A DNA stretch of 64,000 nucleotides from assembly GCA_964598145.1 (NCBI GenBank), contig CAZRAM010000006.1, forward strand, positions 84,440-148,439, in the 5' to 3' direction. Source of the DNA: an uncultured Pseudomonadales bacterium (GTDB lineage Bacteria > Pseudomonadota > Gammaproteobacteria > Pseudomonadales > JAHEIH01). The number at the start of each line of letters is the position of its first letter. The stretch's first letter is position 1. Positions 144 through 61,122 of this stretch are shown one piece after another. The notes beneath the pieces are model-generated. The model ran no database searches. It worked only from the letters and a program-made list of their open reading frames with translations, and was not told where the DNA came from. A program made the position numbers and the translations under genes.

Positions 144-1439
144 GTGACCGAGTGGGCCTATGCGGCGGTGGGCGTGGGTGTTGGTACCTTATTCGCTACC
201 CTGTGGCTGCGGCCGCGATTAACCCTGCTAACCCAGCAGCGCGATGACATTGCCCAGCAGAGCCTTCTGAAAGACGCTGAGTTGGACGATCTGCGTGAAC
301 GTCTGGCAGATGCAAGGGAGTTGGCGGCGGGCCTCCAGGCGCGCCTAGAGAGCGAACAGGCATCGGCTGAACAAAAGCTGGCGGTTCTACAGGATGCCCA
401 GCAGCAGCTGCGTCAGCAATTTGAAAATCTCGCCAATCGCATCTTCGACGACAAACAGCAGCGCTTTCGCGACGACAGTAAAGCGTTGTTAGAAGCGAGT
501 TTGTCTCCGCTGCGCCAGCAGTTGGGTGACTTCAAACAGCGTGTTGAAACCGTTTACGAAAAAGACAGCCAGGGCCGCCAGGCCATTCTCGCAGAAGTGA
601 AACTGTTGCAGCAGCTCAACCAGTCCATGAACGAAGAGTCGCGCCGCTTAACGCAGGCACTGAAGGGCGATAACAAGGCACAGGGCAACTGGGGCGAAAT
701 TATTCTGGAGCGCGTATTGGAACAGTCTGGCCTGAGTGCCGGCCGCGAATTCGATACCCAGGTCACCCTGCACAACAACGACGGCAAGACGCTGCGTCCT
801 GACGTGCTGATCAGGCTCCCCGAGGAGCGCTGTCTGATTGTTGACGCTAAAGTCTCCCTGACTGACTACGAACGCTACATCAATGCCGATAGCGACGATG
901 TTCGCGAGCGAGCCTTAAAACAACACGTGGCGTCGATGAGGCAGCACATCGCGGGCTTGAGCCAAAAAGACTATGAATTTTTAGAGGGGGTTAGCGCCCC
1001 TGAATTTGTTTTTGTGTTTGTGCCCATTGAGGCGGCTTACCACGCCGTGGTCGATGCCGACCCCAGTGTGTTTACCCAGGCCTATGAAAAGAATGTCGTG
1101 GTGGTGAGCCCCGCCACATTGCTGGCCACACTGCGCACGGTGCAGTTCTTGTGGCGACGCGACAAACAAAACCGCAACGCCGAGAAAATCGCCAGCGAGG
1201 CGGGCGGTCTCTATGACCAGTTGAGCTTGGTGTTGGAAAGCTTGCTGGAACTAGGTAAGCAAGTGCAGCGTACACAGGATTCTTACAATATCACCCTGAA
1301 TCGCCTGTCCGAGGGGCGCGGCAATGCCCTTGGCCGGGTCGAAAAGCTGCAGCGCCTCGGCGCCAAAGCCAAACGCAAAATGCCCAGCTTGCCGGGGCAC
1401 CGCGACGACCAGGACGACGACAGCGACCTCAGCGAATAA
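144..1439 (+). CDS. rmuC: DNA recombination protein RmuC
   Basis: 431-aa ORF with GTG start. N-terminal hydrophobic helix, long Q/E/L-rich coiled coil, and a C-terminal RmuC-type nuclease-like core (RPDVLIRLPEERCLIVDAKVSL). Confidence 0.85.
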   Translation: MTEWAYAAVGVGVGTLFATLWLRPRLTLLTQQRDDIAQQSLLKDAELDDLRERLADARELAAGLQARLESEQASAEQKLAVLQDAQQQLRQQFENLANRIFDDKQQRFRDDSKALLEASLSPLRQQLGDFKQRVETVYEKDSQGRQAILAEVKLLQQLNQSMNEESRRLTQALKGDNKAQGNWGEIILERVLEQSGLSAGREFDTQVTLHNNDGKTLRPDVLIRLPEERCLIVDAKVSLTDYERYINADSDDVRERALKQHVASMRQHIAGLSQKDYEFLEGVSAPEFVFVFVPIEAAYHAVVDADPSVFTQAYEKNVVVVSPATLLATLRTVQFLWRRDKQNRNAEKIASEAGGLYDQLSLVLESLLELGKQVQRTQDSYNITLNRLSEGRGNALGRVEKLQRLGAKAKRKMPSLPGHRDDQDDDSDLSE

Positions 1440-4441: not shown

Positions 4442-4866
4442 ACGCGCACTGCTAGCACGTCGCAGCTGGCGCCGTGCAACACACCGTTGGCGGTGGAGCC
4501 AAATACCAGCGCCAGGCCGTGGCGGCCGTGGCTGCCGACCATGACGAGGTCTGCGCCCAGCTCTTCAGCGAGGGTGTGAATTTCCGACTCTGGGCGGCCG
4601 ATCACAATGTGTTGGCGCTCTTCGGGGATGTCCCATTTGCTGCCGAGTTTGCGCATTTGGTTTTCAGCCTGCTTGTAAATTTCTTCTTGCACGCTTGAAA
4701 AATCCATGGGAATGTCGCCACCATAGGCAAAACTCAGTGGCTCGATGACATGCACGATGCTGACCATGGCATCGTTGAGCTTGGCAAGGTTAGCCCCTTT
4801 GGCGGCGACCTTATCCGAGTCTTCGCTTAAGTCTAGGCCCAATAAAACGTGTGAATACATACCCAT
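4438..4866 (-). CDS. Universal stress protein (UspA family)
   Basis: MGMYSHVLLGLDLSEDS N-terminus and the C-terminal ATP-binding motif VMVGSHGRHG...GSTANGVLH. Start set at ATG 4866, with GGAGAG 6 nt upstream; the longest ORF starts at 4926. Confidence 0.8.
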   Translation of the reverse strand: MGMYSHVLLGLDLSEDSDKVAAKGANLAKLNDAMVSIVHVIEPLSFAYGGDIPMDFSSVQEEIYKQAENQMRKLGSKWDIPEERQHIVIGRPESEIHTLAEELGADLVMVGSHGRHGLALVFGSTANGVLHGASCDVLAVRV

Positions 4867-4964
4867 GCTCGTCTCTCCGTCGACAGTTAATATGTGGTTG
4901 TCACTAATATAGTACATACCTGTCATGTGTTGGCAGCGTATTAATGAAAATGTTGAGGTAGATC

Positions 4965-5453
4965 ATGAGCTATTTGATCATTGCCCTGGTGGTAGCGGCG
5001 GTGATTGGCCCGGTAATGTGGCTGCGCCCCAATCCACGTGAAAAGCAGTTGCTTAGGCTACGTGAGGCGGCGCGCAAGGCTGGTTTACACGTGCACCTGC
5101 GGGCGGTACCGCCCAATCACGGTGACGGCGATCGCGTCGTGGAGCCCGCTATTATGGCCTATATTCGGCCCTGGACAGAGCGGGAGCGCAAGTCGACGCT
5201 GCCAGAAAAATTTACCTGCCCCTGTTTTGAAGGCGAGTGGCAGTTGTACCGCAGTCGCGATATTTTACAGCCTGAGCACGTGGCCAATATGCCTGACAGT
5301 TGTCGCTTGTTAGAGGTAAATAGCGAAGGGCTCATCGTCTATTGGCGCGAGCGTGGCGACGAGGCCAGAGTCCAGTCACTGGCGGCGTCAATGGAGCAAA
5401 TGTGCCAAGCTTTGTTGCGTCACGTTGGCAACAAATATGCGTTGAAAACTTGA
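4965..5453 (+). CDS. Hypothetical membrane-anchored protein
   Basis: 162-aa ORF with one N-terminal TM helix (YLIIALVVAAVIGPVMWL). No recognised family. Confidence 0.5.
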   Translation: MSYLIIALVVAAVIGPVMWLRPNPREKQLLRLREAARKAGLHVHLRAVPPNHGDGDRVVEPAIMAYIRPWTERERKSTLPEKFTCPCFEGEWQLYRSRDILQPEHVANMPDSCRLLEVNSEGLIVYWRERGDEARVQSLAASMEQMCQALLRHVGNKYALKT

Positions 5454-5532
5454 CAAGCATTGTCACAGGTCTTAATTATAGCGCCCCTTTGGCCCCAATA
5501 TTTCTGGGGGCGCGCAGCGAGCATTGGAGAGA

Positions 5533-8235
5533 ATGGCAAAATCACTCGTTATTGTGGAGTCGCCAGCAAAGGCGAAAACCATTAATAAATACCTAGGCAA
5601 CGACTTCATCGTTAAGTCGAGCATTGGTCACATTCGCGATTTGCCGACCAGCGGTTCGAGTACGCCGGTCGATCCGAAGGCACGTGCTAAGCAAGCGGCG
5701 TTAACCCGCAAAATGAGCCCTGCTGAGAAAGAAAAATACCAGCGCAACAAAGCGCGCGAGCAGCTAGTCAATCGTATGGGGATCGACCCCGAAAACGGCT
5801 GGCAGGCGCACTACGAGATTCTCCCCGGTAAAGAAAAGGTGGTGGCTGAGCTAAAACGCCTCGCCAAGACTGCCGACCGCGTCTATCTGGCAACGGATTT
5901 GGATAGAGAGGGGGAGGCCATCGCCTGGCACTTGCGCGAGGCGATCGGCGAAGACGTATCTGAATACAAGCGCGTAGTCTTCAATGAAATTACCAAAAAG
6001 GCCATCACCGAGGCCTTTGAGAAGCCATCCGAACTAGATATCAACCGCGTCAATGCGCAGCAGGCGCGACGCTTCCTCGATCGCGTGGTGGGCTACATGG
6101 TGTCGCCACTGTTGTGGCAAAAAGTCGCTCGTGGTCTTTCCGCGGGTCGCGTTCAGTCGGTGGCGGTTCGCCTCGTGGTAGAGCGCGAGCACGAGATTCG
6201 CGCCTTTGTTCCCGAAGAGTACTGGGAATTGCATGCCGATACCCAAACGGCGCGCAGTGATGCCCTGCGTTTAGAGGTCAAAAAGCAGGCCGGACAAAAT
6301 TTCCGTCCCACCAACGAAGCGCAAACTCAGGCTGCCATGCAGGCCTTGCAAAGCGCCACGCTAAAAGTCACCGAGCGCGAAGACAAGCCGACCAGTTCTC
6401 GCCCCAGTGCGCCATTTATTACCTCGACCCTGCAGCAGGCTGCTAGCACCCGTCTAGGCTTTGGGGTGAAGAAAACCATGATGTTGGCGCAGCGACTCTA
6501 CGAGGCTGGCTATATCACCTATATGCGTACCGACTCGACCAACCTGTCGAACGACGCCGTGGCAGCTTGCCGCGACTATATTCAAGGCCAATTTGGTGCC
6601 GACTATTTGCCCGCCAACCCGCTGCGCTACAGCTCGAAAGAGGGTGCGCAGGAAGCGCACGAGGCTATCCGTCCCTCTGACGTTAATGTGTTGCCGCAAA
6701 ACCTGGCGGGTATGGAGCGCGATGCTGAGCGCCTTTACACACTTATCTGGCGTCAATTCGTCGCTTGCCAAATGACACCTGCGCGCTATACCTCGACCAG
6801 TGTTGGTGTCACGGCTGGCGAGTTTGAGTTGCGCACGCGCGGTCGAATCATGGTGTTCGATGGCTACACCAAGGTGATGCCGCCCGCCGCGAAAAAAGAC
6901 GAAGACGCCATACTGCCCAATGTTGCCGTTGGCGATACCTTGCAGTTAGTGAAGCTGGATCCCAGTCAGCACTTTACCAAACCGGCCCCTCGTTACACTG
7001 AGGCGAGCTTGGTGAAAGAGTTAGAGAAGCGTGGTATTGGTCGTCCTTCTACTTACGCGGCCATTATTTCTACCATTCAAGATCGCGGCTACGTGCGTGT
7101 TGAAAACCGCCGTTTCTTCGCCGAAAAAATGGGCGATATTGTCACCGCCCGCCTGGTGGAAAATTTCAATGATCTACTCGATTTCAGCTTTACTGCGCGC
7201 ATGGAAGAGTCGCTCGATAAAGTCGCCGATGGCGATGTGCAGTGGTTGGCCCTGTTAGATCAGTTCTACGCAGATTTTTCCAAGCAGTTGGCCGCGGCAG
7301 AAAATGCCGAGACCGGCATGCGCGCCAACGACCCAACCGAGACCGATATACCCTGTCCCGACTGCGGTCGCCCGATGATGATTCGCACCGCCAGTACCGG
7401 TGTGTTCCTGGGTTGCAGTGGTTATGCATTGCCGCCCAAAGAGCGCTGTAAGTCGACCATCAACCTGATTTCTGGTGACGAGGTTGTGGCGGTCAGCGAC
7501 GAGGAAGACGACGAGGCAGAAGCGCGCGCGTTGATTGGCAAGCACCGCTGTGGCCTTTGTGGCACGGCGATGGAAAGCTACCTAATCGACAGCGAGCGCA
7601 AATTGCACGTATGTGGCAATAACCCCGATTGCAGTGGGTTTGAAGTCGAGCGCGGTAAGTACAAGATTAAAGGCTACGATGGCCCGGTCATCGAATGCGA
7701 TAAGTGTAACGCAGAGATGCAGCTGAAAACGGGCCGCTTTGGCAAGTACTTTGGCTGCACCGCCTGTAGCAACACCCGCAAATTATTGCGCAACGGCGAG
7801 GTGGCACCACCCAAGATGGAGCCAGTTCCAATGCCCGAACTGCAGTGCGAAAAGGTGGATGATCACTACATCCTGCGCGATGGCGCGGCGGGTCTATTCC
7901 TAGCGGCAAGTAAATTTCCTCGCAATCGCGAAACCCGGGCGCCACTGCTGCGCGAGTTGTTACCCCACGCGGCAGAGATCGATAGCAAGTACGATTTCAT
8001 CATGACCGGCCCGGTAGAGGACAGCCAAGGTAACCCCACGATTTTGCGCTATAGCCGCAAGACCAAAGAGCAATACCTGATGACTGAGGTCGAGGGTAAG
8101 GCGACGGGTTGGCAGGCGTTCTACAACGACGGCCGCTGGTCGATCGTGGAGGGCAAGGCGGCGGCTAAAAAGGCACCCGCTAAAAAGGCTGCCAAGAAGC
8201 CCGCGGCGAAGAAAAAAACCGCTAAGAAGGCATAA
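5533..8235 (+). CDS. topA: DNA topoisomerase I
   Basis: Toprim N-terminus [22 protein letters not shown], active-site Tyr region [10 protein letters not shown], several C-terminal Zn-ribbon CxxC pairs (CPDCG, CGLCG, CDKCN) and a Lys/Ala-rich tail. An alternative TTG start lies at 5524. Confidence 0.95.
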
Positions 8236-12967: not shown

Positions 12968-14059
12968 ATGCAAGAAATTGTCTCGCAATTTCAACAGATT
13001 ATGTCTAGCACCAGCGGCGCGGTATTCGTCGTTATAGCTATTACTGCCGTGGCCCACCTAATTGCAAAAATTTTGTTAGCGGGTTTGCTGCGAAGTACTC
13101 GTATGTCGCGCACGGCGCTCGACGACAATTTGGTGGAGGCGGTGCAAACCCCCTTGCTTTATTTTGTCTGGCTGTTGGGCTTGAGTTGGGCGGTCGACAT
13201 TATTGATGCTAGCAACGAGTTGCCTATTTTTTCCTTTGCCGATGACGTCACGCGGGTTGGTGTTATCGTGCTACTGGCCTGGGCCTTGGTGCGCATTATT
13301 CGCGGCGTAGAGGCGGTCTATATCGAGCGCACTCACGACTCGGCTGAAGAGAGCCGTGTCGATGAGTCGACCGCGACGGCCATTGCCAAATTACTGCGTA
13401 TGGCGGTGTTAATTACCGCTGGCCTAATCATCATGCAGGCACTGGGCTACAGTATCTCTGGGGTCTTGGCCTTTGGTGGCGTCGGTGGTATCGCGGTGGG
13501 TTTTGCCGCTCAAGATTTGCTGTCTAACTTCTTCGGTGCGCTCACCATTCACCTCGATCGTCCCTTCAAAGTGGGTGACTGGATCCGCTCTCCCGATAAA
13601 GAAATTGAAGGTACTGTTGAACACATTGGTTGGCGGGTGACGCGTATTCGCACCTTCGATATGCGCCCGCTGTACGTGCCCAATGCCACCTTTACCAAGA
13701 TCGCCGTGGAAAACCCCTCGCGTATGCTCAATCGCCGAATCTATGAAACGGTGGGGGTGCGTTACGACGATGCCTCGGTGTTAGATAAGATTATTGCCGA
13801 TGTCGAAACCATGCTGCGCAACCATGAGGCCATCGACAAGGGGCGCACCTTGATGGTCAATTTCAACGCCTTTGGCGCATCGTCATTGGATTTCTTTGTG
13901 TACTGCTTTACCCACACCACGGTGTGGACCGAGTATCACCAGATCAAACAGGACGTGTTGTTTAAGATCTATCAGATTGTTGAACAACACGGCGGTGATA
14001 TTGCCTACCCCACCACGCGAGTGCAGTTGGAAAATATCAGCCCCGTTCCAGAGGTGTAA
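12968..14059 (+). CDS. Mechanosensitive ion channel, MscS family
   Basis: 363 aa. N-terminal TM helices and an MscS pore/beta-domain region (GGVGGIAVGFAAQDLLSNFFGALTIHLDRPFKVGDWI). Confidence 0.85.
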   Translation: MQEIVSQFQQIMSSTSGAVFVVIAITAVAHLIAKILLAGLLRSTRMSRTALDDNLVEAVQTPLLYFVWLLGLSWAVDIIDASNELPIFSFADDVTRVGVIVLLAWALVRIIRGVEAVYIERTHDSAEESRVDESTATAIAKLLRMAVLITAGLIIMQALGYSISGVLAFGGVGGIAVGFAAQDLLSNFFGALTIHLDRPFKVGDWIRSPDKEIEGTVEHIGWRVTRIRTFDMRPLYVPNATFTKIAVENPSRMLNRRIYETVGVRYDDASVLDKIIADVETMLRNHEAIDKGRTLMVNFNAFGASSLDFFVYCFTHTTVWTEYHQIKQDVLFKIYQIVEQHGGDIAYPTTRVQLENISPVPEV

Positions 14060-14924
14060 CCAGCACGATTACACCGAATAAGGGGTGGTCGAGGTAGTGG
14101 ATTTCGCCGCTGCGCATGCGACGGCTCTGTCTTAGCGTCACCGTGCGAGACACGCTGTAGGGTTCGTTAACGATGAAGCTAAACGGGCTGTAGGTATCGG
14201 CATTGGTCAGATCAGTGCCGCCTCGGCTCGGCAATTCTGGCACCTGAAACGTGGCTTGTTGGCCGAAATTGGGCAGGAAACTGTGCAGCCACAGGTCGGT
14301 GTCAATGTGTAGGTAGCGTTCAACGCTTACCTTGATCGTCCCTTCCAGTTCAAAATGTGAGCCGTATTCATCCCCACCGGTAATCAGGATCGCGGGTGAG
14401 CGGCGGCGGCTTTCTAGGGGTTGTTGCCACACCTCGTGAAATAGCGGGCGATAGCGATCGATGCGGCGCAGGTGCTGCAAGGCTCCGAGCAGTTGCTTGG
14501 CGCTATCATCGAGCCGTTGAAAGGGCAGTGGCAGGGGAGCAGGGGGTTGTTCTAGTGGCTGGTCAAGCAACTCCATCGGCGTGGTTGCCAGGGCGGCGCT
14601 GTTGGGATCGAGTAACAGCGTGCTATCGTCGCCGCTTGGTTGTGCTGGAAGCTCCAGCAAGTTGGGAACTTCTACCTCAAGCGTGGTGTTGAAGTCACTG
14701 TCGATAGCGTTGGGGAGGGCGATGGCGTCGAACAGCATTTTCACCCGAGAAGGGTAGTTGAGCACCACGTCATCGGGCCAGTTTTCCTCGGCCTCGGACG
14801 CTTCATCCTGGTGGGCGAAGACGATCATCTCCACTTGGTACCAGTTGCTCTCTGCGCTGGCGCTAGTAGCGAAGGCGGCGAACAAGCTGGCGAGCAGTGT
14901 TTTTCTCAAGTGGTACATCATCAT
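14037..14924 (-). CDS. Secreted protein, CsiV-like (peptidoglycan-associated, mfd-linked)
   Basis: 295 aa. Signal peptide LLASLFAAFATSASA followed by NWYQVEMIVFAH, as I recall for the CsiV family. It lies directly downstream of mfd. The family call is from memory. Confidence 0.5.
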   Translation of the reverse strand: MMMYHLRKTLLASLFAAFATSASAESNWYQVEMIVFAHQDEASEAEENWPDDVVLNYPSRVKMLFDAIALPNAIDSDFNTTLEVEVPNLLELPAQPSGDDSTLLLDPNSAALATTPMELLDQPLEQPPAPLPLPFQRLDDSAKQLLGALQHLRRIDRYRPLFHEVWQQPLESRRRSPAILITGGDEYGSHFELEGTIKVSVERYLHIDTDLWLHSFLPNFGQQATFQVPELPSRGGTDLTNADTYSPFSFIVNEPYSVSRTVTLRQSRRMRSGEIHYLDHPLFGVIVLVTPLERG

Positions 14925-14933
14925 TCCCGTAGG

Positions 14934-17900
14934 CTAGGCGCCCAGTTCTTTTAATAAACCCATGGCGAATTCTAGCCGATCTTGCGCTTCAGGCAATGGC
15001 AACTGGAATTTAAGTCCGTTGGCGCCGTTCATGCGGAACGCGCCGGCCTTCGATTGCAGTAGTTTAACGATGGTCATAGGCTCGACTGCGGTATCAGCCG
15101 CGAATTCTAGCCCGCCGCCGCCACCGCCGACATCGAGTTTCATCACACCGATGTGCTCCGCCAGCAATTTCACCTCGCTGATAGAAAACAGCGCTTTGGT
15201 GGGTGGGGGGAGCAGGCCAAAGCGATCGATCATTTCCACCTGCAGTTCGCGCAGTTGATCGCTGTCCTTGGCGGCCGAAATGCGCTTGTACAGACCCAGA
15301 CGCGCATTGACGTCGGGTAGGTAGTCGTCGGGAATCAGAGCCGGTGTGCGCAGGTTGATTTCCGGCCCGCTCTGCAGGGTGGTTTCAAGGTCGACTTTCT
15401 TGCCTTTTTTGAGCGCTTTCACGGCGCGATCCAGCATGTCCATGTACATGCTGAGGCCGACGGTTTGAATTTGGCCAGACTGTTCATCGCCGAGCAGTTC
15501 GCCGGCACCGCGAATCTCGAGGTCGTGGCTAGCGAGTGTAAAGCCAGCCCCCAGCGTGTCTGCAGCGGCGATGGCCTCTAGGCGCTTGTGGGCGTCATCG
15601 GTCATGGCCTTGGACTCTGGCGTTAGCAGATAGGCGTAAGCTTGGTGGTGCGAACGCCCTACACGGCCACGCAGTTGGTGTAACTGGGCCAGGCCGAATT
15701 TATCGGCGCGCTCGATGATGATGGTGTTGGCGTTGGGTACGTCAATACCGGTTTCGATAATGGTGGTACATAGTAGGATGTTGTACTTCTTGTGGTAGAA
15801 GTCGCTCATCACTTGTTCCAAATCGCGCTCGCGCATCTGGCCATGGCCGATGCCGATGTGCGCCTCGGGGAGCAATTCCTGTAGCTCGCGAGCGGCATTT
15901 TGAATGGTCTTAACCTCGTTGTGCAGGTAGTAGACCTGGCCGCCGCGCAGTAATTCACGCCAAATCGCTTCTTTGATCAGTGGTTTTTTCTTCTCGCTGA
16001 CGAAGGTCTTCACCGATAGACGGCGCGCCGGCGGAGTGGCGATGATCGACAAATCGCGCATGCCCGACATGGCCATGTTCAGTGTGCGTGGAATGGGTGT
16101 GGCGGTCAGGGTGAGGATGTCCACCTCGGCGCGCAGAGCCTTGATGGCTTCTTTCTGGCGTACCCCAAAACGATGCTCTTCGTCGATAATAAGCAGGCCG
16201 AGATCTTTAAATTTTATGCTCGACTGCAGCAATTTGTGGGTGCCGACCAGAATGTCGACCTTGCCCTGTTCAAGGCGGGCGATGATGTCGGCTACGTCCT
16301 TGTCGCTTTTGAATCGCGACACCACTTCCACCGTTACGGGCCACTCGGAAAAGCGGTCGCGGAAGGTCTCGTAGTGCTGCTGGGCGAGTAGGGTGGTGGG
16401 CACCAGCATAGCTACCTGGCGGCCAGCGTCGACGGCAACAAAGGCGGCGCGCATCGCTACCTCGGTTTTGCCAAAGCCGACATCACCACACACCAGTCGA
16501 TCCATCGGCGTTGAGGCGCGCATATCGCGGATGACGTTTTCGATGGCTTCGGTTTGGTCGGGCGTTTCCTCAAACGGAAAGCCAGCTGCGAATTGTTGGT
16601 AATTTAAATCGCTGAAGGCGCACGACACGCCTTCACGCGCGGCGCGGCGCGAGTAGATGTCGAGTAGTTCGGCGGCCGCATCACGGGCTTTTTCGGCGGC
16701 CTTGCGGCGTGCCTTGCTCCACTGTTCGGTGCCGAGTTTGTGCAGCGGTGCCGCGGCGTCATCGCCGCCCGAGTAAAGGCTAATTAAATCGAGCGAGGTG
16801 ACTGGAACATAGAGTTTGGCACCGTCGGCGTACTGCAGGGCGAGAAATTCGCTGGCTTGACCGTCGATAGGGATGCTTTCCAGTCCAAGGTAGCGACCAA
16901 TGCCGTGCTCGGCGTGGACCACGGCCTTGCCAGGCGCCAGTTCGGCGAGGCTTTTTACCGCCAGTTCAGTGCTGTCGCTGCTGCGTTTGCGGCGGCGGCG
17001 CTGCATGACGCGCTGGCCAAACAGTTGTGGCTCGGCGATGACCTCGATGCCTTGGGTAGGTAGGCACAGTCCCTCGGCAAGGGGGGCGACAGTGATCGCT
17101 AGGGTGGCGTCGCTCATCGTAAACTCCGCCCAATCGGCGACCTGTTTCGGGCGAATATCCCCTTTGGCAAACAATTCCAGAAGTGATTCTCGGCGACCAG
17201 TAGTTTCAGCACAAATAAGAATGCGCAATTTGCTGGTGTGCAGGTGGCGTTTTAACTCCGCCAGTGGGTCGTCGGCGCGCGCGTCGATGCTGAGGTCGGC
17301 CATCGGGCTGGCGGGGAACACAAATTGGCTCTTGTCTGCTGCGCCCTCGCTGTAGACGATTCGCGACAGGCTCTTGAAACGGCCAAACAGTTCTTCGTTG
17401 GCCATGAATAGGTGTTTAGGGGGCAATAGCGGACGGGTGGGGTCGATACCGAGTTCGTCGAAGCGGTTGGCGATATCCTGCCAGTACTGTTGCACTGTCG
17501 GTTCTAAGGCGGCATCTGCGAACAGCAGGCTGTCGTCCGGAAGATAGTCCAGCAAGCTATCGGTGTGCTCAAAAAAGAGCGGCAGATAGTATTCGATACC
17601 CGCCGGTGCCATGCCGTCGCTGACATCGCGGTAGGTCGGGCACTTGCGGTGGTCAACGTCGAACAGTTCGTGCCATTGGTTGCGGAAGCGTTTGATGCCC
17701 TCAGCGTCGAGCGGGAATTCACGCGCCGGGAGAATCTCAATGCGTTCGACTTTCTCGAGCGTGCGCTGAGTTTCTGGGTCGAAGCTGCGCAAACTCTCCA
17801 ATTCATCGTCGAACAGTTCAAGTCGGAAGGGCACTGTACTACCCATGGGGAATAAGTCGACCACCGAGCCGCGTACGGCAAATTCACCGTGTTCGTAAAC

Positions 17901-54650: not shown

Positions 54651-55046
54651 ATGCTGAACACCAACCGCAAAACACTTTGGTACGGTAAGCTGGACACTCC
54701 GAATTTCAGCAATACAGTACTTTTTGACCCTGAGCTGCCAGAGCCGCCCAAGGGTAAGCTTTACCTCTATAATCACGATCGTGGCCAAGTGGTGCAGTAC
54801 GTGCACGACCTTGTATCGCCGCGACTGCGCGATTTGACCGAACAAGAATTGGTGGAAATGCAAGAGGCGATTGCCAACCATTGGGAAGGGGTAAAAAAGG
54901 AGTTCATTCGAACCCATACCATTCCCACGCGAGCAGCGCCGGCCAGTGCTCCGACGTCGCGTAGCCGTAACCTCGACGATGACATCGACGACAGCGGTAG
55001 CGATGATGATTTTGGTGGCGATTTCGATTTAGATATGGACGATTAA
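54651..55046 (+). CDS. Hypothetical protein with poly-acidic tail
   Basis: Start set at ATG 54651 (MLNTNRKTLWYG). C-terminus is DDDIDDSGSDDDFGGDFDLDMDD. Preferred over the antisense 194-aa ORF, whose composition is not protein-like. Confidence 0.5.
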   Translation: MLNTNRKTLWYGKLDTPNFSNTVLFDPELPEPPKGKLYLYNHDRGQVVQYVHDLVSPRLRDLTEQELVEMQEAIANHWEGVKKEFIRTHTIPTRAAPASAPTSRSRNLDDDIDDSGSDDDFGGDFDLDMDD

Positions 55047-55104: not shown

Positions 55105-57309
55105 ATGAACGACGCTGACGATTCTGAACTTACAATGCGCCGCCGATGGCCACTGGTACTCGTGCTGGTGGTCGGTCTTGGCGCTTCTATATTTGCCGCC
55201 CAGCAACAACATCTTGCCAATCAAGAAACGACCCGCAAGGCGTTTGCAGGCACCGTGCGCCAGTTTGTCCAACTGCGCAAACAAGCGTTCCGCCAGCAGT
55301 TCATTGTACTCAACTCAGTCAACGCCTTACTAAGTTCGCGTTTAGTCGATGCTAGCGCGAGTTCTGCAGCACGCGAATTATTAGACTATCTCAGCTTGCG
55401 AGACATCGATCGTGAGTTTTCCGGAGTTTATGGGATAGGTCTGATTGAGCGGGTCGCGGCGGAGAATGAAGCGGACTTTACTGCCCAAATGCGTTTGATC
55501 CATGGGTCTTCGTTTGCTATCCGCTCGCTTCAACAAAACCCAGCTTATACCGGTGATAAGTGGGTTGTCACTGCCTCTTACCCAGAGCGCAACAAAGCCG
55601 CGGTTGGCCTAGATATCACGTCAGAAAAAACACGCCTGGGGCCGGTCAGTGAAATACTGCAGGGCTATACCCCTAACGATAGCGGTATAAATGCAACTAA
55701 AGCCATCGACTTGGTGCAAATCGATGGCGACCTAGTGTCGGGATTTTTGATCTATCGTGCTATCGGCAATGCGGGCCCAGAGTTACAGCGCATTGCCTAT
55801 GTGGTGATTAACTTTGAACACATCGGTCATTCCTTGCTGAAGCCATACCTCGACCGAGGCATCAATCATCCCTTTGAACTGTTTATTTTTGACGATGCCA
55901 CCGATAGCTGTTTGTTTTCATTTACCGTAGCTGAGGGTTTCGCATCTCACTGCCCGGAAGACTTTCAACGCAATCAATCTCGCTATGAAATCTCTGATCT
56001 ACACACGATGCGTAATTTTTACAGCGTCATGCGCCCAACGGCTGAATTTACCGATAGCCTGGGGTTAACGAGCCCTTGGGCGGTACTTTTATAGGGTCTA
56101 GCAGCGACCTTCGCTATTTTAGCGGGCACCTTAGTGCTGTATAAGCAGCGCACTCTGCTGGCGCAAATGGTTGAAGAGCGCACCCAGGAATTAACACTTA
56201 AAACGCGAGAGTCGCTCATGGCTGAGCGCGCTAAGGATGAATTTCTTACCAAAATGAGTCACGAACTGCGCACGCCATTAAACGGTATTTTTGGTGCCAT
56301 TCAGATGTTTCAGATGCGCAAAATTGACCCGGAGTGGACCCAGGCGCTCAATGTGGCCGACAAGTCTGCGCGTCACCTGTTGGCGCTGGTGGACGAGATG
56401 ACCGAGTTGGATATGATTCGTCAGCGCCGTGTCCATCTGACCTTGACGTCTTTTAATATTCGTTCATCGCTTGAAATGGTGCGCGCCTTATTGGCGGATA
56501 AGGCCAAATTGAAAAATCTCATCCTCAGTGTTCAGGTTGATGAGTCTGTGCCAGATATAGTCATTGGTGACCAGCGCCGCGTGCAACAAGTCCTCATCAA
56601 TCTTTTGGAAAATGCCATCCACTTTACGTCGCAGGGGCAAGTACACTGCGAAGTCAGTGTGCTTAATTTGGAAGCGAGCCGGGTCACACTGCAGTTCAAT
56701 ATAACCGATACTGGGCATGGCATGAGCAAAGAGCAGCAGCGCCAGGTACACGCGTTGGCGGACGAGCGTCGTTTCGATTTACAAAACACCTCGTTGTTAC
56801 CAGGGCTTGGGCTGCGTATTGTCAACGAGTTACTGCACTTAATGGGAGGTAAGCTCGCGTTGACCTCAACCCTTGGCATCGGTACGCAAGTAAAATTTGC
56901 GCTGGGCTTTGCCCTAGATACCAGTAGTGCCGACACCGCGATAACCTATTTAGCGCCACTGTCGAGCAAACAAAAGATTTTAGTACTCAGTAGAGACAAC
57001 GCCATCGATCTCGATGAAGGCGTCCTGGGCGGCAGTATTTCCTATTTCCAAAATGTTGATGAGATACAGCAGACGATAGCCCAAGCGGCACATTTAAGTG
57101 CCGTGCTTGTGGATATTGATAGCGATATCGACGCCTTACTCGCCTTGGCAGGAAGTGAGAATTCATACCGCACAATTGCATGCGTGAGTGATGACAATAA
57201 GGCGATGCGTATTAAAGCGTACGCGCAGGGGGTTACTGATATATTGCTGAAACCCGTGGATAGCCACGCGCTGCTGAGTATGTTGCACCCCAACGATAAC
57301 GAGCATTAA
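55105..57309 (+). pseudogene. CHASE-domain hybrid sensor histidine kinase interrupted by a single in-frame TAG (56092-56094)
   Basis: ORFs 55105-56094 and 56134-57309 are in the same frame. Part 1 is TM1 plus a periplasmic CHASE-like domain. The codons just after the TAG encode GLAATFAILAGTLVLY, which is TM2. Part 2 has H-box SHELRTPLNGI, N-box NLLENAIHFT, G-boxes DTGHGM and GLGLRI, and a receiver-like C-terminus (VLVDID...LLKP). Confidence 0.65.
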
Positions 57310-57454
57310 ACGAGATTTTTGCGAAATATTTTAAAATCATCATCTAAAAATCATGAACCTCGATGAGATTTGTTGCAGATTAATGAGGCCTCTAAGCGCT
57401 GGCCCTAGTTTTAGGGTTAAGCGTTAAACATTCAACGTCAAAAGGAGAGATGTG

Positions 57455-57799
57455 ATGTTTATGAAGCCTGCCGTGTTGTTTGCTGCACTTGCCAGCCTTA
57501 CCCTGGCTACCCCAGTGGCCTCTGCGGAAAAATCCTACACCTATCAAGGTGATCGAAGCGCCAAAAAGATATGCCGTGCCATCGTTCGTGATAAACCCAA
57601 ACAATTGCGTATTCATCTGATGCGAGCTGCGCAGTTTAATGCGATACCTTATCGCACCATCCACAATGAGTACGCCTGTAATGATTTGGCGTTAATCGAT
57701 TTCGCCTATGAAGTTGAAGCAGTGCATACCATTACGTATTTGAAGTCTCGCGGGGCGGTCAGAACGCGTGTCACAATGGAAGAACTTGCGGCTTTATAA
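57455..57799 (+). CDS. Small secreted two-cysteine protein, paralog 1 (possibly DUF3718-like)
   Basis: AAGGAGAG 7 nt upstream of ATG 57455. Signal peptide ends VASA. Shares the core AKK(I/V)C...RAA.F..IPY..(I/V)HN.Y.CND..LIDFA with paralogs 2 and 3. Confidence 0.75.
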   Translation: MFMKPAVLFAALASLTLATPVASAEKSYTYQGDRSAKKICRAIVRDKPKQLRIHLMRAAQFNAIPYRTIHNEYACNDLALIDFAYEVEAVHTITYLKSRGAVRTRVTMEELAAL

Positions 57800-57830
57800 G
57801 TCATTACTTGCCATTGCTGTTGTGTTATTA

Positions 57831-57853
57831 AAGCCAGTTTTACTGGCTTTTTT
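57831..57853 (+). terminator. Rho-independent terminator after paralog 1
   Basis: AAGCCAG / CTGGCTT 7-bp stem with a 5-nt loop, followed by a T-run. Confidence 0.7.
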
Positions 57854-58242
57854 GTTTTCTTTTGCAAAGTTGTTTTAATTGTTTTTTGTTTGTAATAGCT
57901 AAGGTTTATTTTCGTAATTGGGGTGTGAAAATAATTAATTTTTATATTTCTTTTTGCTATTTTTAACTTGCATTTTGTTATTTGGGTTTTTTAAAAATGC
58001 AAATAAAAACAGTGCCTTGTGTTTGGTTTTTGGTTTTTTGTTTCTTTTTTGTTGTCATTTTTTTTGCTTATTAATTTTTCGAAAATACAGATCAAAATAT
58101 TTATAAGATAAATGTTGTTTGGTGTCGTATACCTATACATATCGCTCGGGTGATCCCCGAGTTCTGATAACTTCACTAAGCGTGATACGGAGGCACGCAG
58201 TGGCATAGGTTGATTTTTAATTTTTCTTAAAAGGATATTGTT

Positions 58243-58587
58243 ATGATCAAATCATTAGGTATTTTTGCGACTGCAGCGACGCTTTCAATGACGGCTATGC
58301 AGGTTTCAGCTGGGGGTATGGATGTTCACTACAAAGGCCACCAACCCGCTAAAAAAGTATGTATGTCGATTGTTGACGACGACGCCATGACGTTAAAGTT
58401 TGCCCTTAAACGTGCTGCTGCCTTTAGTCCTATTCCCTACAGTAAGGTACACAATTACTACTCGTGTAACGACATGAAGCTAATCGATTTTGCCTACTCG
58501 ATGGAGGCGGAAGAGGTAAAAGCCTACCTCAAACGCAAAGGTGAAATTGGATCGCATGTTGAGATGCAGGAGTTGGCGTCTAGATAA
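58243..58587 (+). CDS. Small secreted two-cysteine protein, paralog 2
   Basis: 114 aa with AAGGA upstream and a signal peptide ending QVSA. Conserved core as in paralogs 1 and 3. Confidence 0.75.
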   Translation: MIKSLGIFATAATLSMTAMQVSAGGMDVHYKGHQPAKKVCMSIVDDDAMTLKFALKRAAAFSPIPYSKVHNYYSCNDMKLIDFAYSMEAEEVKAYLKRKGEIGSHVEMQELASR

Positions 58588-58616
58588 ATGCGTTAAATAT
58601 GATGAATGCATGATGA

Positions 58617-58646
58617 GGGTCAGCACTGCTGACCCTTTTTGTTTTT
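58617..58646 (+). terminator. Rho-independent terminator after paralog 2
   Basis: Perfect 8-bp stem GGGTCAGC/GCTGACCC with a 3-nt loop, followed by TTTTTGTTTTT. Confidence 0.85.
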
Positions 58647-58844
58647 AAGTTGTTGATTAATATCGGTAAAAAATAATCACCAAAAAGTGCGGAAATCATC
58701 ATTTTTTCATCATGCGTTATTTTTAGATCCTGACATGATGATTAGCAAGTCACGGCGCTTGGTAATTTTTAGGTTGCGCAGGTGACACAAGGAAACGTTA
58801 TCTAGACGTTGAAAAAGTAAAATTGTCCTAGAAGGAATTTCGCC

Positions 58845-59186
58845 ATGTTTACTAAATTAGGAATGATTGCCGCCGTAGCAGCCTTAACCCTTGCCACTAC
58901 TCATGCTAACGCCGCCCAGGACGTCGTATACAAAGGCGACCAGAATGCTAAGAAAGTGTGTATGTCGATTGTTAGCGATGATGCAAAAGCTCTGAAAAGC
59001 TCTTTAAAAAGAGCGGCTTATTTTAGCCCCATCCCTTATCGCACTATTCACAACTACTACAGCTGCAATGACCTGGCGCTGATTGATTTTGCCCATGAAA
59101 TGGATGCGCAAAATTCGGTTGCTTATCTGCATACGCGTGGTGCTGTAGGTACACGTGTAACCATGGAAGAAGTGGCTTCTCGCTAA
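58845..59186 (+). CDS. Small secreted two-cysteine protein, paralog 3
   Basis: 113 aa with GAAGGA upstream and a signal peptide ending HANA. Conserved core as in paralogs 1 and 2. Confidence 0.75.
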   Translation: MFTKLGMIAAVAALTLATTHANAAQDVVYKGDQNAKKVCMSIVSDDAKALKSSLKRAAYFSPIPYRTIHNYYSCNDLALIDFAHEMDAQNSVAYLHTRGAVGTRVTMEEVASR

Positions 59187-59226: not shown

Positions 59227-59250
59227 AGGCCAGCATTTGCTGGCCTTTTT
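59227..59250. terminator. Terminator hairpin between paralog 3 and the convergent GH13 gene
   Basis: Perfect 8-bp stem AGGCCAGC/GCTGGCCT with a 4-nt loop, followed by TTTTT on the + strand. It lies in the 67-nt gap between convergent stops. Confidence 0.8.
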
Positions 59251-59253
59251 CGT

Positions 59254-61122
59254 TTAACGAACGAATTCGAAAATTTCGCCATCCATCGGCGCAATGCTTG
59301 CGCTAAGACGCCCTTGTCCGCTACTGACCAGCAAGGTTGCTTGACTTCCCCCTAGCTGCCCGCGGAGGCTGTGACGCCCCTCAGCGAGGCCAAGAGCCGC
59401 AATCGTCTCTGCGGGAATGATCAATTCATTCGTCCAGGCTTGGTGACGATCAAAGTTACTCATGACGATCCAGCGTTGCTCGCTGTGATCTAGGAGGTAG
59501 GCCACCTGGCTTTCGCCCGCGTGGAGCTTGGTCGTGGTGCCAAAGGGGGCGGCGGCGTCTTGCACAGTATGGAACAGCTTGCTGTACCAATGGCGCAGGC
59601 CGGCTTGTTCTGCATTTAATCGGCCACCGTCGAAGGCGCCATCGTTCATCCACGCTTGAATAGAAGGCACGCCCCAGTAGTCGAAGATGGTGGTGTCAAA
59701 CCACGTACCTTCCTCTAATCCGCCAAAGCCTGCGTTACCTTCAGCGCGTTCGCCTAGCTCCTGACCGAAGTACAACATAATTGGTCCGCTGTGCAGAGTG
59801 GCGGCCGTGATCATGGCGGGCTTACCCATCTGAGCATCGCCGGCGAAGCCCTCGCTAGCGAGGCGACGTTCATCGTGGTTTTCTAAGAAACGCAACAGTT
59901 GGCCTTGGATATCGGCGAGGCCTTGGTTGATGTCGAACAGTTGTTGGGTATGACCACTGCCTTGCATAATGGCGTACAGTGTATCGTATTGCCCGACCTT
60001 GTCGTAGAGGAAATCCATCTTGCCGAGGTTAATGTAGTCTCGATAAATACTGGGGGTATAAATTTCAGCCAGTAAAAAGGCCTCGGGATTGCGCAGTTTA
60101 ATGGCGCTATTTAAATAGCTCCACACTTCGACAGGCACTAGCTCGGCAACATCAAAGCGAAAACCATCCACGCCTTTGTCGAGCCAAAACAGCACGATGT
60201 CGCGATATTTACGCCATGAATCTGGCACGTCAACGGTGGCCCAAAAGGCGGCGTGTTCGGCGATGCCCTTGTCGGCAAAATCGGCCGGCAGGGTGGGGAA
60301 GTCGTAGCTGCCGTCGGGTTTTACGCCGTAATTGATGCGAACCGTTTCGTACCAATCCCACACGCCGGGTTTGGCGGCTCGCGCCCCGTTACCCGTCCAT
60401 TTGGCGGGCACCTCGTTAAATTGTCCATCCAGCAAGGGGTGGCCGGCTTCACCGAGGTCGCGGTAGGGCTTTTCTGGGACCTCAAAGGCCTGACCGGGGA
60501 CATAGTAGAAATTGTTGTCGCGTGCATACGCCACACTGCTATCGTCGTTGGCGCCAAAGTCGCTGACGCCTTCAGGTTTGCCCAGGGATTGATAGTGTCG
60601 CGCGACGTGGTTGGGCACGATGTCGATGATAACCTTCATGCCATGGCGGTGGGTCCGCTCGACTAGCGCTTCAAATTCTGCCATGCGATTGTCGACATCC
60701 ACCGCGAGATCGGGCGCTACTTGGTAATAGTCCTTAACAGCATAGGGCGATCCCGCGCGCCCTTTTACCACATCGGGATCATCCTGACTGATGCCAAAGG
60801 CGGTATAATCGGTAACCGTAGCGTGATGCAGGATACCTGTGTACCAAATATGGGTAATCCCAAGTTCTGCCAAACTTTCCAGCGCGGCATCGTTGATGTC
60901 ATTAAATTTACCTACACCGTTTTCCTCGATCGTGCCCCAAGCCTTGTTGGTGGTTGTTTTATTACCAAATAGGCGGGTAAACATTTGATACACGATGGGC
61001 TTCTGATAGTGCGACTCATTCATTGTGATGGTTTCTTCAGGTTGGCTGCAGGCTGATAAAAAGCACAGACAGATAATAGCCAAAGTGCATTTTTGGAATG
61101 AAAGCATGTTGTACCTTTGCAT
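59254..61122 (-). CDS. Glycoside hydrolase family 13 (alpha-amylase family) lipoprotein
   Basis: 622 aa with lipobox FLSAC. GH13 conserved regions VIIDIVPNHV, GFRFDVAELV, FLLAEIY and RFLENHDERR. Confidence 0.88.
   Translation of the reverse strand: MQRYNMLSFQKCTLAIICLCFLSACSQPEETITMNESHYQKPIVYQMFTRLFGNKTTTNKAWGTIEENGVGKFNDINDAALESLAELGITHIWYTGILHHATVTDYTAFGISQDDPDVVKGRAGSPYAVKDYYQVAPDLAVDVDNRMAEFEALVERTHRHGMKVIIDIVPNHVARHYQSLGKPEGVSDFGANDDSSVAYARDNNFYYVPGQAFEVPEKPYRDLGEAGHPLLDGQFNEVPAKWTGNGARAAKPGVWDWYETVRINYGVKPDGSYDFPTLPADFADKGIAEHAAFWATVDVPDSWRKYRDIVLFWLDKGVDGFRFDVAELVPVEVWSYLNSAIKLRNPEAFLLAEIYTPSIYRDYINLGKMDFLYDKVGQYDTLYAIMQGSGHTQQLFDINQGLADIQGQLLRFLENHDERRLASEGFAGDAQMGKPAMITAATLHSGPIMLYFGQELGERAEGNAGFGGLEEGTWFDTTIFDYWGVPSIQAWMNDGAFDGGRLNAEQAGLRHWYSKLFHTVQDAAAPFGTTTKLHAGESQVAYLLDHSEQRWIVMSNFDRHQAWTNELIIPAETIAALGLAEGRHSLRGQLGGSQATLLVSSGQGRLSASIAPMDGEIFEFVR

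Follow-up and report, generated by a model that had tools for sequence, protein, structure and literature searches.

Three tandem DUF3718 genes beside a CHASE sensor kinase gene in an uncultured Pseudomonadales bacterium and their possible role in envelope signalling

The window analyzed here, a stretch of 64,000 nucleotides from an uncultured Pseudomonadales bacterium (GenBank assembly GCA_964598145.1, contig CAZRAM010000006.1, positions 84,440 to 148,439), carries a tandem array of three genes for small proteins, p1, p2 and p3, located directly downstream of a gene for a sensor kinase with a CHASE domain. The three + strand open reading frames (ORFs) lie exactly where the original prediction, made from the letters of the window, had placed them (Table 1). 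Their products contain 114, 114 and 113 amino acids. For p1, alternative in-frame starts are present at 57452 (GTG) and 57461 (ATG), and the ATG at 57455 sits 7 nt past an AAGGAG Shine-Dalgarno sequence; in all three genes the distance from the Shine-Dalgarno sequence to the ATG is 7-8 nt. The proteins are diverged paralogs, as had been proposed, with pairwise identities of 42-57% and 41 columns invariant in all three. The similarity noted between p2 and p3 at the DNA level was also found, in a 56-nt stretch with 80% identity which includes GT(A/G)TGTATGTCGATTGTT.

Six independent metagenome assemblies carry the identical array of three genes. A related array occurs in the Cellvibrionales metagenome-assembled genome (MAG) Ww495 (locus L007), which shares ~82% DNA identity with the window over the array. 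Between p2 and its L007 ortholog, the non-synonymous substitution rate (dN) is 0.06 and the synonymous rate (dS) 1.17 (dN/dS ~0.05), and p3 shows eight synonymous and no non-synonymous codon differences among strains of the window species. These substitution patterns demonstrate that the genes are real and under purifying selection.

All three proteins belong to the DUF3718 family (PF12514), which the original prediction had suggested, with scores of 23.4, 24.9 and 22.5 bits for p1, p2 and p3 that barely reach the gathering cut-off of 22.5. In a family alignment of 67 sequences, PF12514 matches all 67 relatives at E ≤ 1 (best E 8.5e-12). The family members are single-domain proteins of ~105-135 residues with a hydrophobic N-terminus, two Cys residues and a CN..L..FA core. 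Using p3 numbering, C39, C74 and F82 are invariant in 67/67 sequences, and conservation reaches 90% or more at G31, A35, N75, L79 and L95. Searched exhaustively with the profile, 1.84 billion representative proteins yielded 146 clusters at 50% identity (E ≤ 1e-3), a word-indexed search found five clusters at 90% identity for the narrow subfamily of p1-p3, and scans of genome and metagenome collections returned three loci each. The uncharacterised DUF3718 family groups small proteins exported by marine gammaproteobacteria, and p1-p3 are new, divergent members of this known family and no new kind of system. Compared to other DUF3718 proteins they are divergent and borderline-scoring, and their three tandem copies are unusual, since relatives carry one.

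NCBIfam gave no match for p1-p3, PADLOC and PHROGs, which cover anti-phage defence and phage proteins, gave nothing above a noise-level hit (E 0.032), and plasmids gave no match in DNA or protein searches. No Pfam or NCBIfam match relates these proteins to HdeA/B, Spy/CpxP, or lysozyme or amylase inhibitors, which are also absent among the 50 PDB fold matches listed. A PDB sequence search with the family profile returned noise only (adiponectin, HLA-B27) and no sequence-related structure, and the literature library searched contained no paper mentioning DUF3718 or PF12514, in line with the earlier statement that the family has no known function. The top match in the profile search, P0006 (2316 residues), aligned through 41 weak repeated stretches and was rejected as a tandem-repeat false positive (its unit contains VHDLYTCNDLQYT), which a census of the family should filter out. 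Two-domain DUF3718 fusions of 193-222 residues were also observed, namely P0051 (222 residues, the one whose sequence was read), P0113, P0129 and P0144, and one encoded in L018 (Table 1). These fusions hint that DUF3718 domains may work in pairs.

The N-termini of p1, p2 and p3 resemble Sec signals, as judged by eye and hydropathy, with a basic residue, a hydrophobic core and an AXA site (VASA↓E, VSA↓G and ANA↓A, respectively), which agrees with the exported two-cysteine proteins originally described. The two Cys residues are 35 positions apart (C40/C75 in p1 and p2, C39/C74 in p3) and not about 37, as had been claimed. The N-terminus is hydrophobic in all 67 relatives, and the mature part contains exactly two Cys residues in 65 of them. 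From the AXA sites, hydropathy and strict co-conservation of the Cys residues, we infer Sec export and a periplasmic disulfide.

All three genes possess a Shine-Dalgarno sequence and a terminator of their own and are separated by long spacers (443 and 257 bp) with a GC content down to 21% versus the window mean of 54.7%. As predicted earlier, this arrangement indicates separate units rather than an operon. The further suggestion that the units are independently regulated holds in part, because p1 and p3 have a common rare upstream repeat, which p2 lacks, and are probably co-regulated through it. The three terminator hairpins are homologous to each other and to the hairpin of the single-copy gene of relatives (RGCCAG..CTGGCY-TTTTT), with the stem of the p2 terminator preserved by compensatory changes (GGTCAG/CTGACC). 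Therefore, the duplicated unit comprised the gene with its terminator, and the terminators are under selection. The p3 terminator probably serves both p3 and the convergent amylase gene, since it is only 8 nt from the amylase 3' end.

In the region before p2, a hairpin (CTCGGG-TGATC-CCCGAG) carries a compensatory T-A to C-G change in its L007 version, which suggests a conserved p2 leader structure. The spacer between p1 and p2 is dominated by a T-rich tract, in which gene callers place a minus-strand ORF of 71-76 codons; it looks spurious because its product is of low complexity. A sigma-70 promoter scan found no + strand promoter in the array. Rfam gave sub-threshold matches only, at terminator positions, with no RNA family and no tRNA in the window; one of them, a weak RyhB match at 57800-57855, was rejected as overlapping the p1 terminator.

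The repeat upstream of p1 and p3 has the form ATCAT-N6-ATCAT. It occurs three times in the window against 0.12 expected, all three sites are in the array, and none of 100 shuffles reached this number. Site 1 lies within a block conserved in L007 and in the related MAG L008, site 2 is inverted, and no site was found upstream of p2. The upstream regions of p1, p2 and p3 show no mutual alignment past the short repeat. A relaxed version, ATCAB-N6-ATCAB, precedes the DUF3718 start by ~100-190 nt on the + strand in L008, in L024 and in each of the five loci with a ToxR-like regulator gene described below, although their intergenic regions are otherwise barely alignable. In L019, the regulator gene itself is preceded by sites as well. 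Winged-helix proteins of the OmpR/PhoB/ToxR class usually bind DNA at direct repeats that recur every 11 bp, and site 1 is a candidate operator for such a regulator. A Pho box or a Fur box was considered an unlikely reading: the half-sites are ATCAT rather than TGTCA, and the repeats are direct, not palindromic. In L008, an inverted site was likewise observed after the single DUF3718 copy, placed between its stop codon and its terminator as in p2, where only the convergent amylase 3' end and no + strand gene lies beyond it.

The closest DUF3718 proteins outside the p1-p3 subfamily (~35-42% identity to p3) form a sister clade. In five of its loci (L014, L015, L016, L019 and L023), the DUF3718 gene is directly preceded on the same strand by orthologous regulator genes for proteins of 129-160 residues, which consist of a Trans_reg_C winged-helix domain (E 1e-12 to 1e-15), a linker and one transmembrane (TM) helix that ends the protein. 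This domain order marks them as tail-anchored regulators of the ToxR type that lack a periplasmic domain. Because of the 11-bp repeat period, the adjacent regulator is the obvious candidate binder in the sister clade. L019 has a second regulator gene, divergent to the first.

The kinase gene upstream of p1 is broken, as originally described, by one substitution (TAC to TAG), with the stop at about residue 330, the expected place of the second TM helix. The gene is intact (734 residues) in L001-L003, and the TAG allele is shared by the window strain and L005, which identifies the nonsense codon as a strain polymorphism. The gene order in the window species is MFS, ADH, a flavodoxin-like protein, an acidic protein of 131 residues, the CHASE-HisKA-HATPase kinase, p1, p2 and p3, followed by a convergent GH13 amylase, FKBP, GH97 and GH31. 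L008 has an intact kinase, one p1-type DUF3718 copy, an amylase and GH97; p1 is the ortholog of this single copy and occupies the same position. In L009, L025 and L026, the CHASE kinase gene is followed by one DUF3718 copy and then directly by FKBP, TrmA and FBPase, with no glucan genes. Thus, in the window species as well as in L008 and L009/L025/L026, the kinase gene directly precedes the DUF3718 gene, whereas other neighbours vary. Since this order is kept across lineages while the glucan genes and the copy number vary, the kinase-DUF3718 pair is ancestral: on this comparative evidence, the ancestral state is one DUF3718 copy directly 3' of the CHASE kinase gene, and the triplication is specific to the lineage of the window and L007. 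The original prediction had placed the array between a broken kinase and an alpha-glucan locus; the placement is right, but the glucan adjacency is secondary and the conserved neighbour is the kinase. The alpha-glucan genes are later insertions on either side of FKBP, because they are absent from the syntenic L025/L026 backbone.

In L007, the kinase is reduced to N- and C-terminal remnants of 54 and 40 residues, followed by three DUF3718 copies, an amylase and GH97. Two 1-bp indels disrupt each of p1 (+1, -1) and p3 (-1, -1), which leaves p2 as the only intact copy of this array; the genes for the amylase, MFS and ADH are undamaged as well. The frame-shifted segments still show 92-97% protein identity, each in its own frame, so that these lesions may be either a very recent joint decay or an indel or local assembly error of the MAG. 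The kinase and the DUF3718 proteins are the fastest-evolving products of the block, with identities to L008 and L025 of 48% and 26% for the kinase and ~70% and ~55% for DUF3718, in contrast to the slow neighbours FKBP (93% and 84%) and the 131-residue protein (90% and 78%). The latter matches no Pfam family and ends in a very acidic tail; its gene is directly 5' of the CHASE kinase gene in every lineage examined, with 78-94% identity, far above that of the kinase. The convergent GH13 amylase has a lipoprotein-type signal (LSAC).

Table 1. Coordinates of the features of the array, its neighbours and related loci
Locus	Feature	Position	Strand	Remarks
Window	131-residue protein gene	54651-55046
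Window	Kinase N-terminal fragment	55105-56094	+	First TM helix and periplasmic CHASE domain; ends at TAG 56092-56094
Window	Kinase C-terminal fragment	56134-57309	+	HisKA, HATPase_c and ~130-residue extension without Pfam match
Window	Repeat site 1	57339-57354	+	ATCATCTAAAAATCAT; 101 nt before p1 ATG; conserved in L007, L008 and L024
Window	p1 Shine-Dalgarno sequence	57442-57447	+	AAGGAG
Window	p1, DUF3718 gene	57455-57799	+
Window	p1 predicted signal peptide	57455-57526	+
Window	p1 Cys40 codon	57572-57574	+
Window	p1 Cys75 codon	57677-57679	+
Window	p1 terminator hairpin	57830-57850	+	AAAGCCAGT..ACTGGCTTT and T-run
Window	T-rich tract in p1-p2 spacer	57851-58110	+	21-27% GC, AT skew -0.44; conserved with L007
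Window	ORF, probably spurious	57991-58206	-
Window	Hairpin, p2 leader/promoter region	58145-58161	+	~80 nt before p2 ATG
Window	p2 Shine-Dalgarno sequence	58231-58235	+	AAGGA
Window	p2, DUF3718 gene	58243-58587	+	Most diverged copy
Window	p2 predicted signal peptide	58243-58311	+
Window	Repeat site 2	58599-58614	-	12 nt past p2 stop, directly before p2 terminator
Window	p2 terminator hairpin	58615-58637	+	GGGTCAGC..GCTGACCC and T-run; compensatory changes versus p3 and L008 hairpins
Window	Repeat site 3	58698-58713	+	ATCATTTTTTCATCAT; 132 nt before p3 ATG; conserved in L007
Window	p3 Shine-Dalgarno sequence	58831-58836	+	GAAGGA
Window	p3, DUF3718 gene	58845-59186	+
Window	p3 predicted signal peptide	58845-58913	+
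Window	p3 terminator hairpin	59227-59246	+	AGGCCAGC..GCTGGCCT and T-run; G+C-rich stem, as in p1 and p2
Window	GH13 amylase gene	59254-61122	-
L001	GH97/GH31 genes	13344-17783
L007	Kinase remnants and frameshifted genes	4778-5061, 5208-5560, 6601-6945
L008	Inverted repeat site after single copy	6357-6372
L014	Regulator gene	363-821
L015	Regulator gene	98-571
L016	Regulator gene	1226-1684
L018	Two-domain DUF3718 fusion	1324-1992
L019	Regulator gene	1227-1616
L019	Second regulator gene	403-840	-	Divergent to 1227-1616
L023	Regulator gene	414-860

An AlphaFold prediction for p3 with six close relatives produced no usable model (predicted local distance difference test, pLDDT, of 50). With the 67-sequence alignment, pLDDT exceeded 90 for residues 31-100, a helical core of ~70 residues with helices at positions 33-43, 47-59 and 65-71, a short beta bridge, and helices at 79-85 and 89-97; the conserved C-terminal tail (V.MEE.A) was modelled with low confidence. 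In Foldseek searches of PDB and BFVD, the full-core matches with low root-mean-square deviation were ankyrin-repeat proteins (2.5-3.5 Å over ~70 columns, probability up to 0.91), with template modelling scores, normalised by full query length, of 0.40-0.47 for the predicted model. They include designed ankyrins (DARPins), the ankyrin domains of ORP1L and RNase L, an Enterobacter ankyrin protein, and poxvirus and giant-virus ankyrins. The core is probably ankyrin-like, a two-repeat fold made of two stacked helix-turn-helix units, but we do not file it in the ankyrin family because the relation is undetectable at the sequence level. In the p3 model, the first helix of unit 1 contains the first Cys, and the second Cys immediately precedes that of unit 2. 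With a disulfide between them, so small a domain of two repeats would be more stable in the periplasm.

We favour the interpretation that p1-p3 are periplasmic protein-binding modules produced as outputs of an envelope signalling pathway and possibly feeding back on its sensor, to which we assign a probability of roughly 35%. The array would have originated by a lineage-specific triplication of one DUF3718 gene with its terminator. Its products would be exported by the Sec pathway, processed by signal peptidase I and, once in the periplasm, oxidised so that one disulfide holds two ankyrin-like helix-turn-helix repeats together as a small module for protein binding. A winged-helix regulator of the OmpR/ToxR class, bound to the direct repeat, would control transcription of p1 and p3, whereas p2 may have lost the operator and diverged in regulation. 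In the sister clade, such a regulator would be the tail-anchored membrane protein encoded next door, and here the CHASE kinase is adjacent; it is this link to a regulator or kinase that would make the proteins outputs of envelope signalling. They would act by binding a periplasmic partner, for which our first candidate is the sensor's own periplasmic domain, with feedback on the kinase in the manner of CpxP or ExoR. A sensor is the preferred partner because the kinase and DUF3718 genes stay together, decay together in L007 and both evolve fast. In its most specific form, which we consider speculative and rather unlikely, DUF3718 proteins would be a class, so far unrecognised, of disulfide-stapled "mini-ankyrin" regulators in the periplasm, made via ATCAT-N6-ATCAT operators under the control of a membrane-bound winged-helix or two-component pathway and binding back to the sensor (here CHASE), with the paralogs providing graded or condition-specific feedback.

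Several observations weigh against this interpretation. The kinase gene carries a nonsense codon in the window strain while p1, p2 and p3 are all intact, and no response regulator or ToxR-like gene was found in the 64-kb window. The sister-clade regulators end at their TM helix and therefore offer no periplasmic binding site, so that the DUF3718 gene there looks like a target and not a partner. The L009/L025 lineage keeps the kinase, but the upstream repeat was not found in it. The ATCAT motif was defined post hoc, and therefore only its window-wide count is a fair test, the cross-locus pattern being supporting evidence. The wider family has no conserved neighbour, and for most of it the neighbour is no signalling gene; distant members are found in Thalassotalea, beside RND efflux genes, beside MscS, beside a GGDEF gene, or between SNF and TypA genes. 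As to the fold, no Foldseek match was statistically significant in PDB or BFVD (best E 0.36-1.4), the Pfam Ank models match none of the 67 relatives nor p1-p3 at E ≤ 1, hhalign against an approximate DARPin sequence gave a probability of 0.05, and a comparison of the two halves of the domain detected no internal repeat.

Alternatively, p1-p3 may be periplasmic inhibitor or immunity proteins directed against a hydrolase of the cell itself or of a competitor, with different targets for the paralogs and an incidental kinase adjacency; this is conceivable, though improbable. The lysozyme inhibitors Ivy, PliC and PliG neutralise hydrolases, and immunity arrays typically contain diverged tandem paralogs. 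Such a role would fit the family's small, stand-alone genes for exported proteins, whose contexts vary, the fast divergence relative to the neighbours, and the ankyrin-like predicted fold, and the Bdellovibrio protein Bd3460 is a precedent. However, no effector or hydrolase gene is consistently adjacent, PADLOC gave no match and Pfam no immunity or inhibitor match, and the genes are monocistronic at a conserved chromosomal site beside housekeeping genes. Moreover, the linkage to kinase or ToxR-like genes and the common operator would be left without explanation.

The proteins might instead be regulated outputs only: periplasmic chaperone-like proteins specific to envelope stress or to certain conditions, in the manner of the small, helical, disulfide-containing HdeA/HdeB or of Spy, induced by the winged-helix regulator without interacting with a sensor. 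A helical mature protein of ~90 residues with one likely disulfide would suit this role, as would a terminator and a putative promoter for each gene, a candidate operator common to the regulator-linked loci, and a duplication that would raise gene dosage. We regard it as quite unlikely, given that HdeA, Spy and CpxP are found neither by Pfam nor among the 50 Foldseek PDB matches listed, and that a rigid repeat-type fold favours a specific partner over a general chaperone.

It is very unlikely that the proteins serve the alpha-glucan locus, for instance by partnering or inhibiting the lipoprotein GH13 amylase. The amylase gene is immediately convergent to p3, and PF00128 genes lie 2.4-3.2 kb from DUF3718 genes in Thalassotalea and L013, but the L009/L025/L026 backbone (kinase, DUF3718, FKBP, TrmA and FBPase) has no amylase, GH97 or GH31. 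In addition, the three amylases come from different GH13 lineages (22% identity in one case, no match in the other), and most other contexts lack amylases. The amylase association, suggestive in three contexts, was accordingly set aside as secondary in view of L025/L026. The proximity of PF00128 amylase genes to unrelated DUF3718 genes in these two further lineages, Thalassotalea (L010-L012) and L013, is probably a coincidence.

That the array is decaying, non-functional DNA left after kinase loss, as the nonsense codon here and the deleted kinase and frameshifted p1 and p3 of L007 might suggest, is hardly credible in view of three ORFs that are all intact in seven independent assemblies, the intact kinase of L001-L003, the p2 dN/dS ratio, the exclusively synonymous p3 differences and the terminators kept by compensatory changes.

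From the viewpoint of annotation, the result is an ordinary one: three paralogs that share an already catalogued domain of unknown function. Nevertheless, the predicted fold class, the link to membrane-bound signal transducers and the candidate operator provide handles that make DUF3718 experimentally approachable. Little is known of what bacterial CHASE kinases bind, whether ligands or partners. If p1-p3 do serve as binding modules in envelope signalling, a dedicated periplasmic partner or output of a CHASE kinase would be useful for the study of envelope signalling in marine polysaccharide degraders.

Among characterized proteins, Bd3460 from Bdellovibrio is a periplasmic ankyrin protein with a signal peptide and six repeats, which acts by binding periplasmic enzymes (PMC4686830). 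Like Bd3460, the DUF3718 proteins have a predicted signal peptide and would bind another protein in the periplasm. In contrast to Bd3460 and other ankyrins, they have two repeat-like units rather than six, no TPLH motif and no target enzyme gene adjacent. Their core also departs from ankyrins by one additional short helix, by a conserved tail at the C-terminus and by an inferred disulfide between the repeats.

In the ToxR/ToxS and VtrA/VtrC systems, a membrane-bound winged-helix regulator is encoded adjacent to the gene of a periplasmic protein. The sister-clade loci resemble them, with a gene for a Trans_reg_C and TM protein directly 5' of the DUF3718 gene and direct-repeat sites between the two. 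However, the sister-clade regulators lack a periplasmic domain, the DUF3718 proteins have a predicted cleavable signal peptide and no membrane anchor, and the neighbour in the window is a kinase rather than a ToxR-like gene. In CpxP/CpxA and ExoR/ExoS-ChvI, a periplasmic output protein feeds back on the kinase. DUF3718 has no sequence or family relation to these proteins, and binding to the CHASE domain is no more than a hypothesis, but the arrangement is similar: a small or repeat-type periplasmic protein encoded beside a sensor kinase in a transcription unit of its own.

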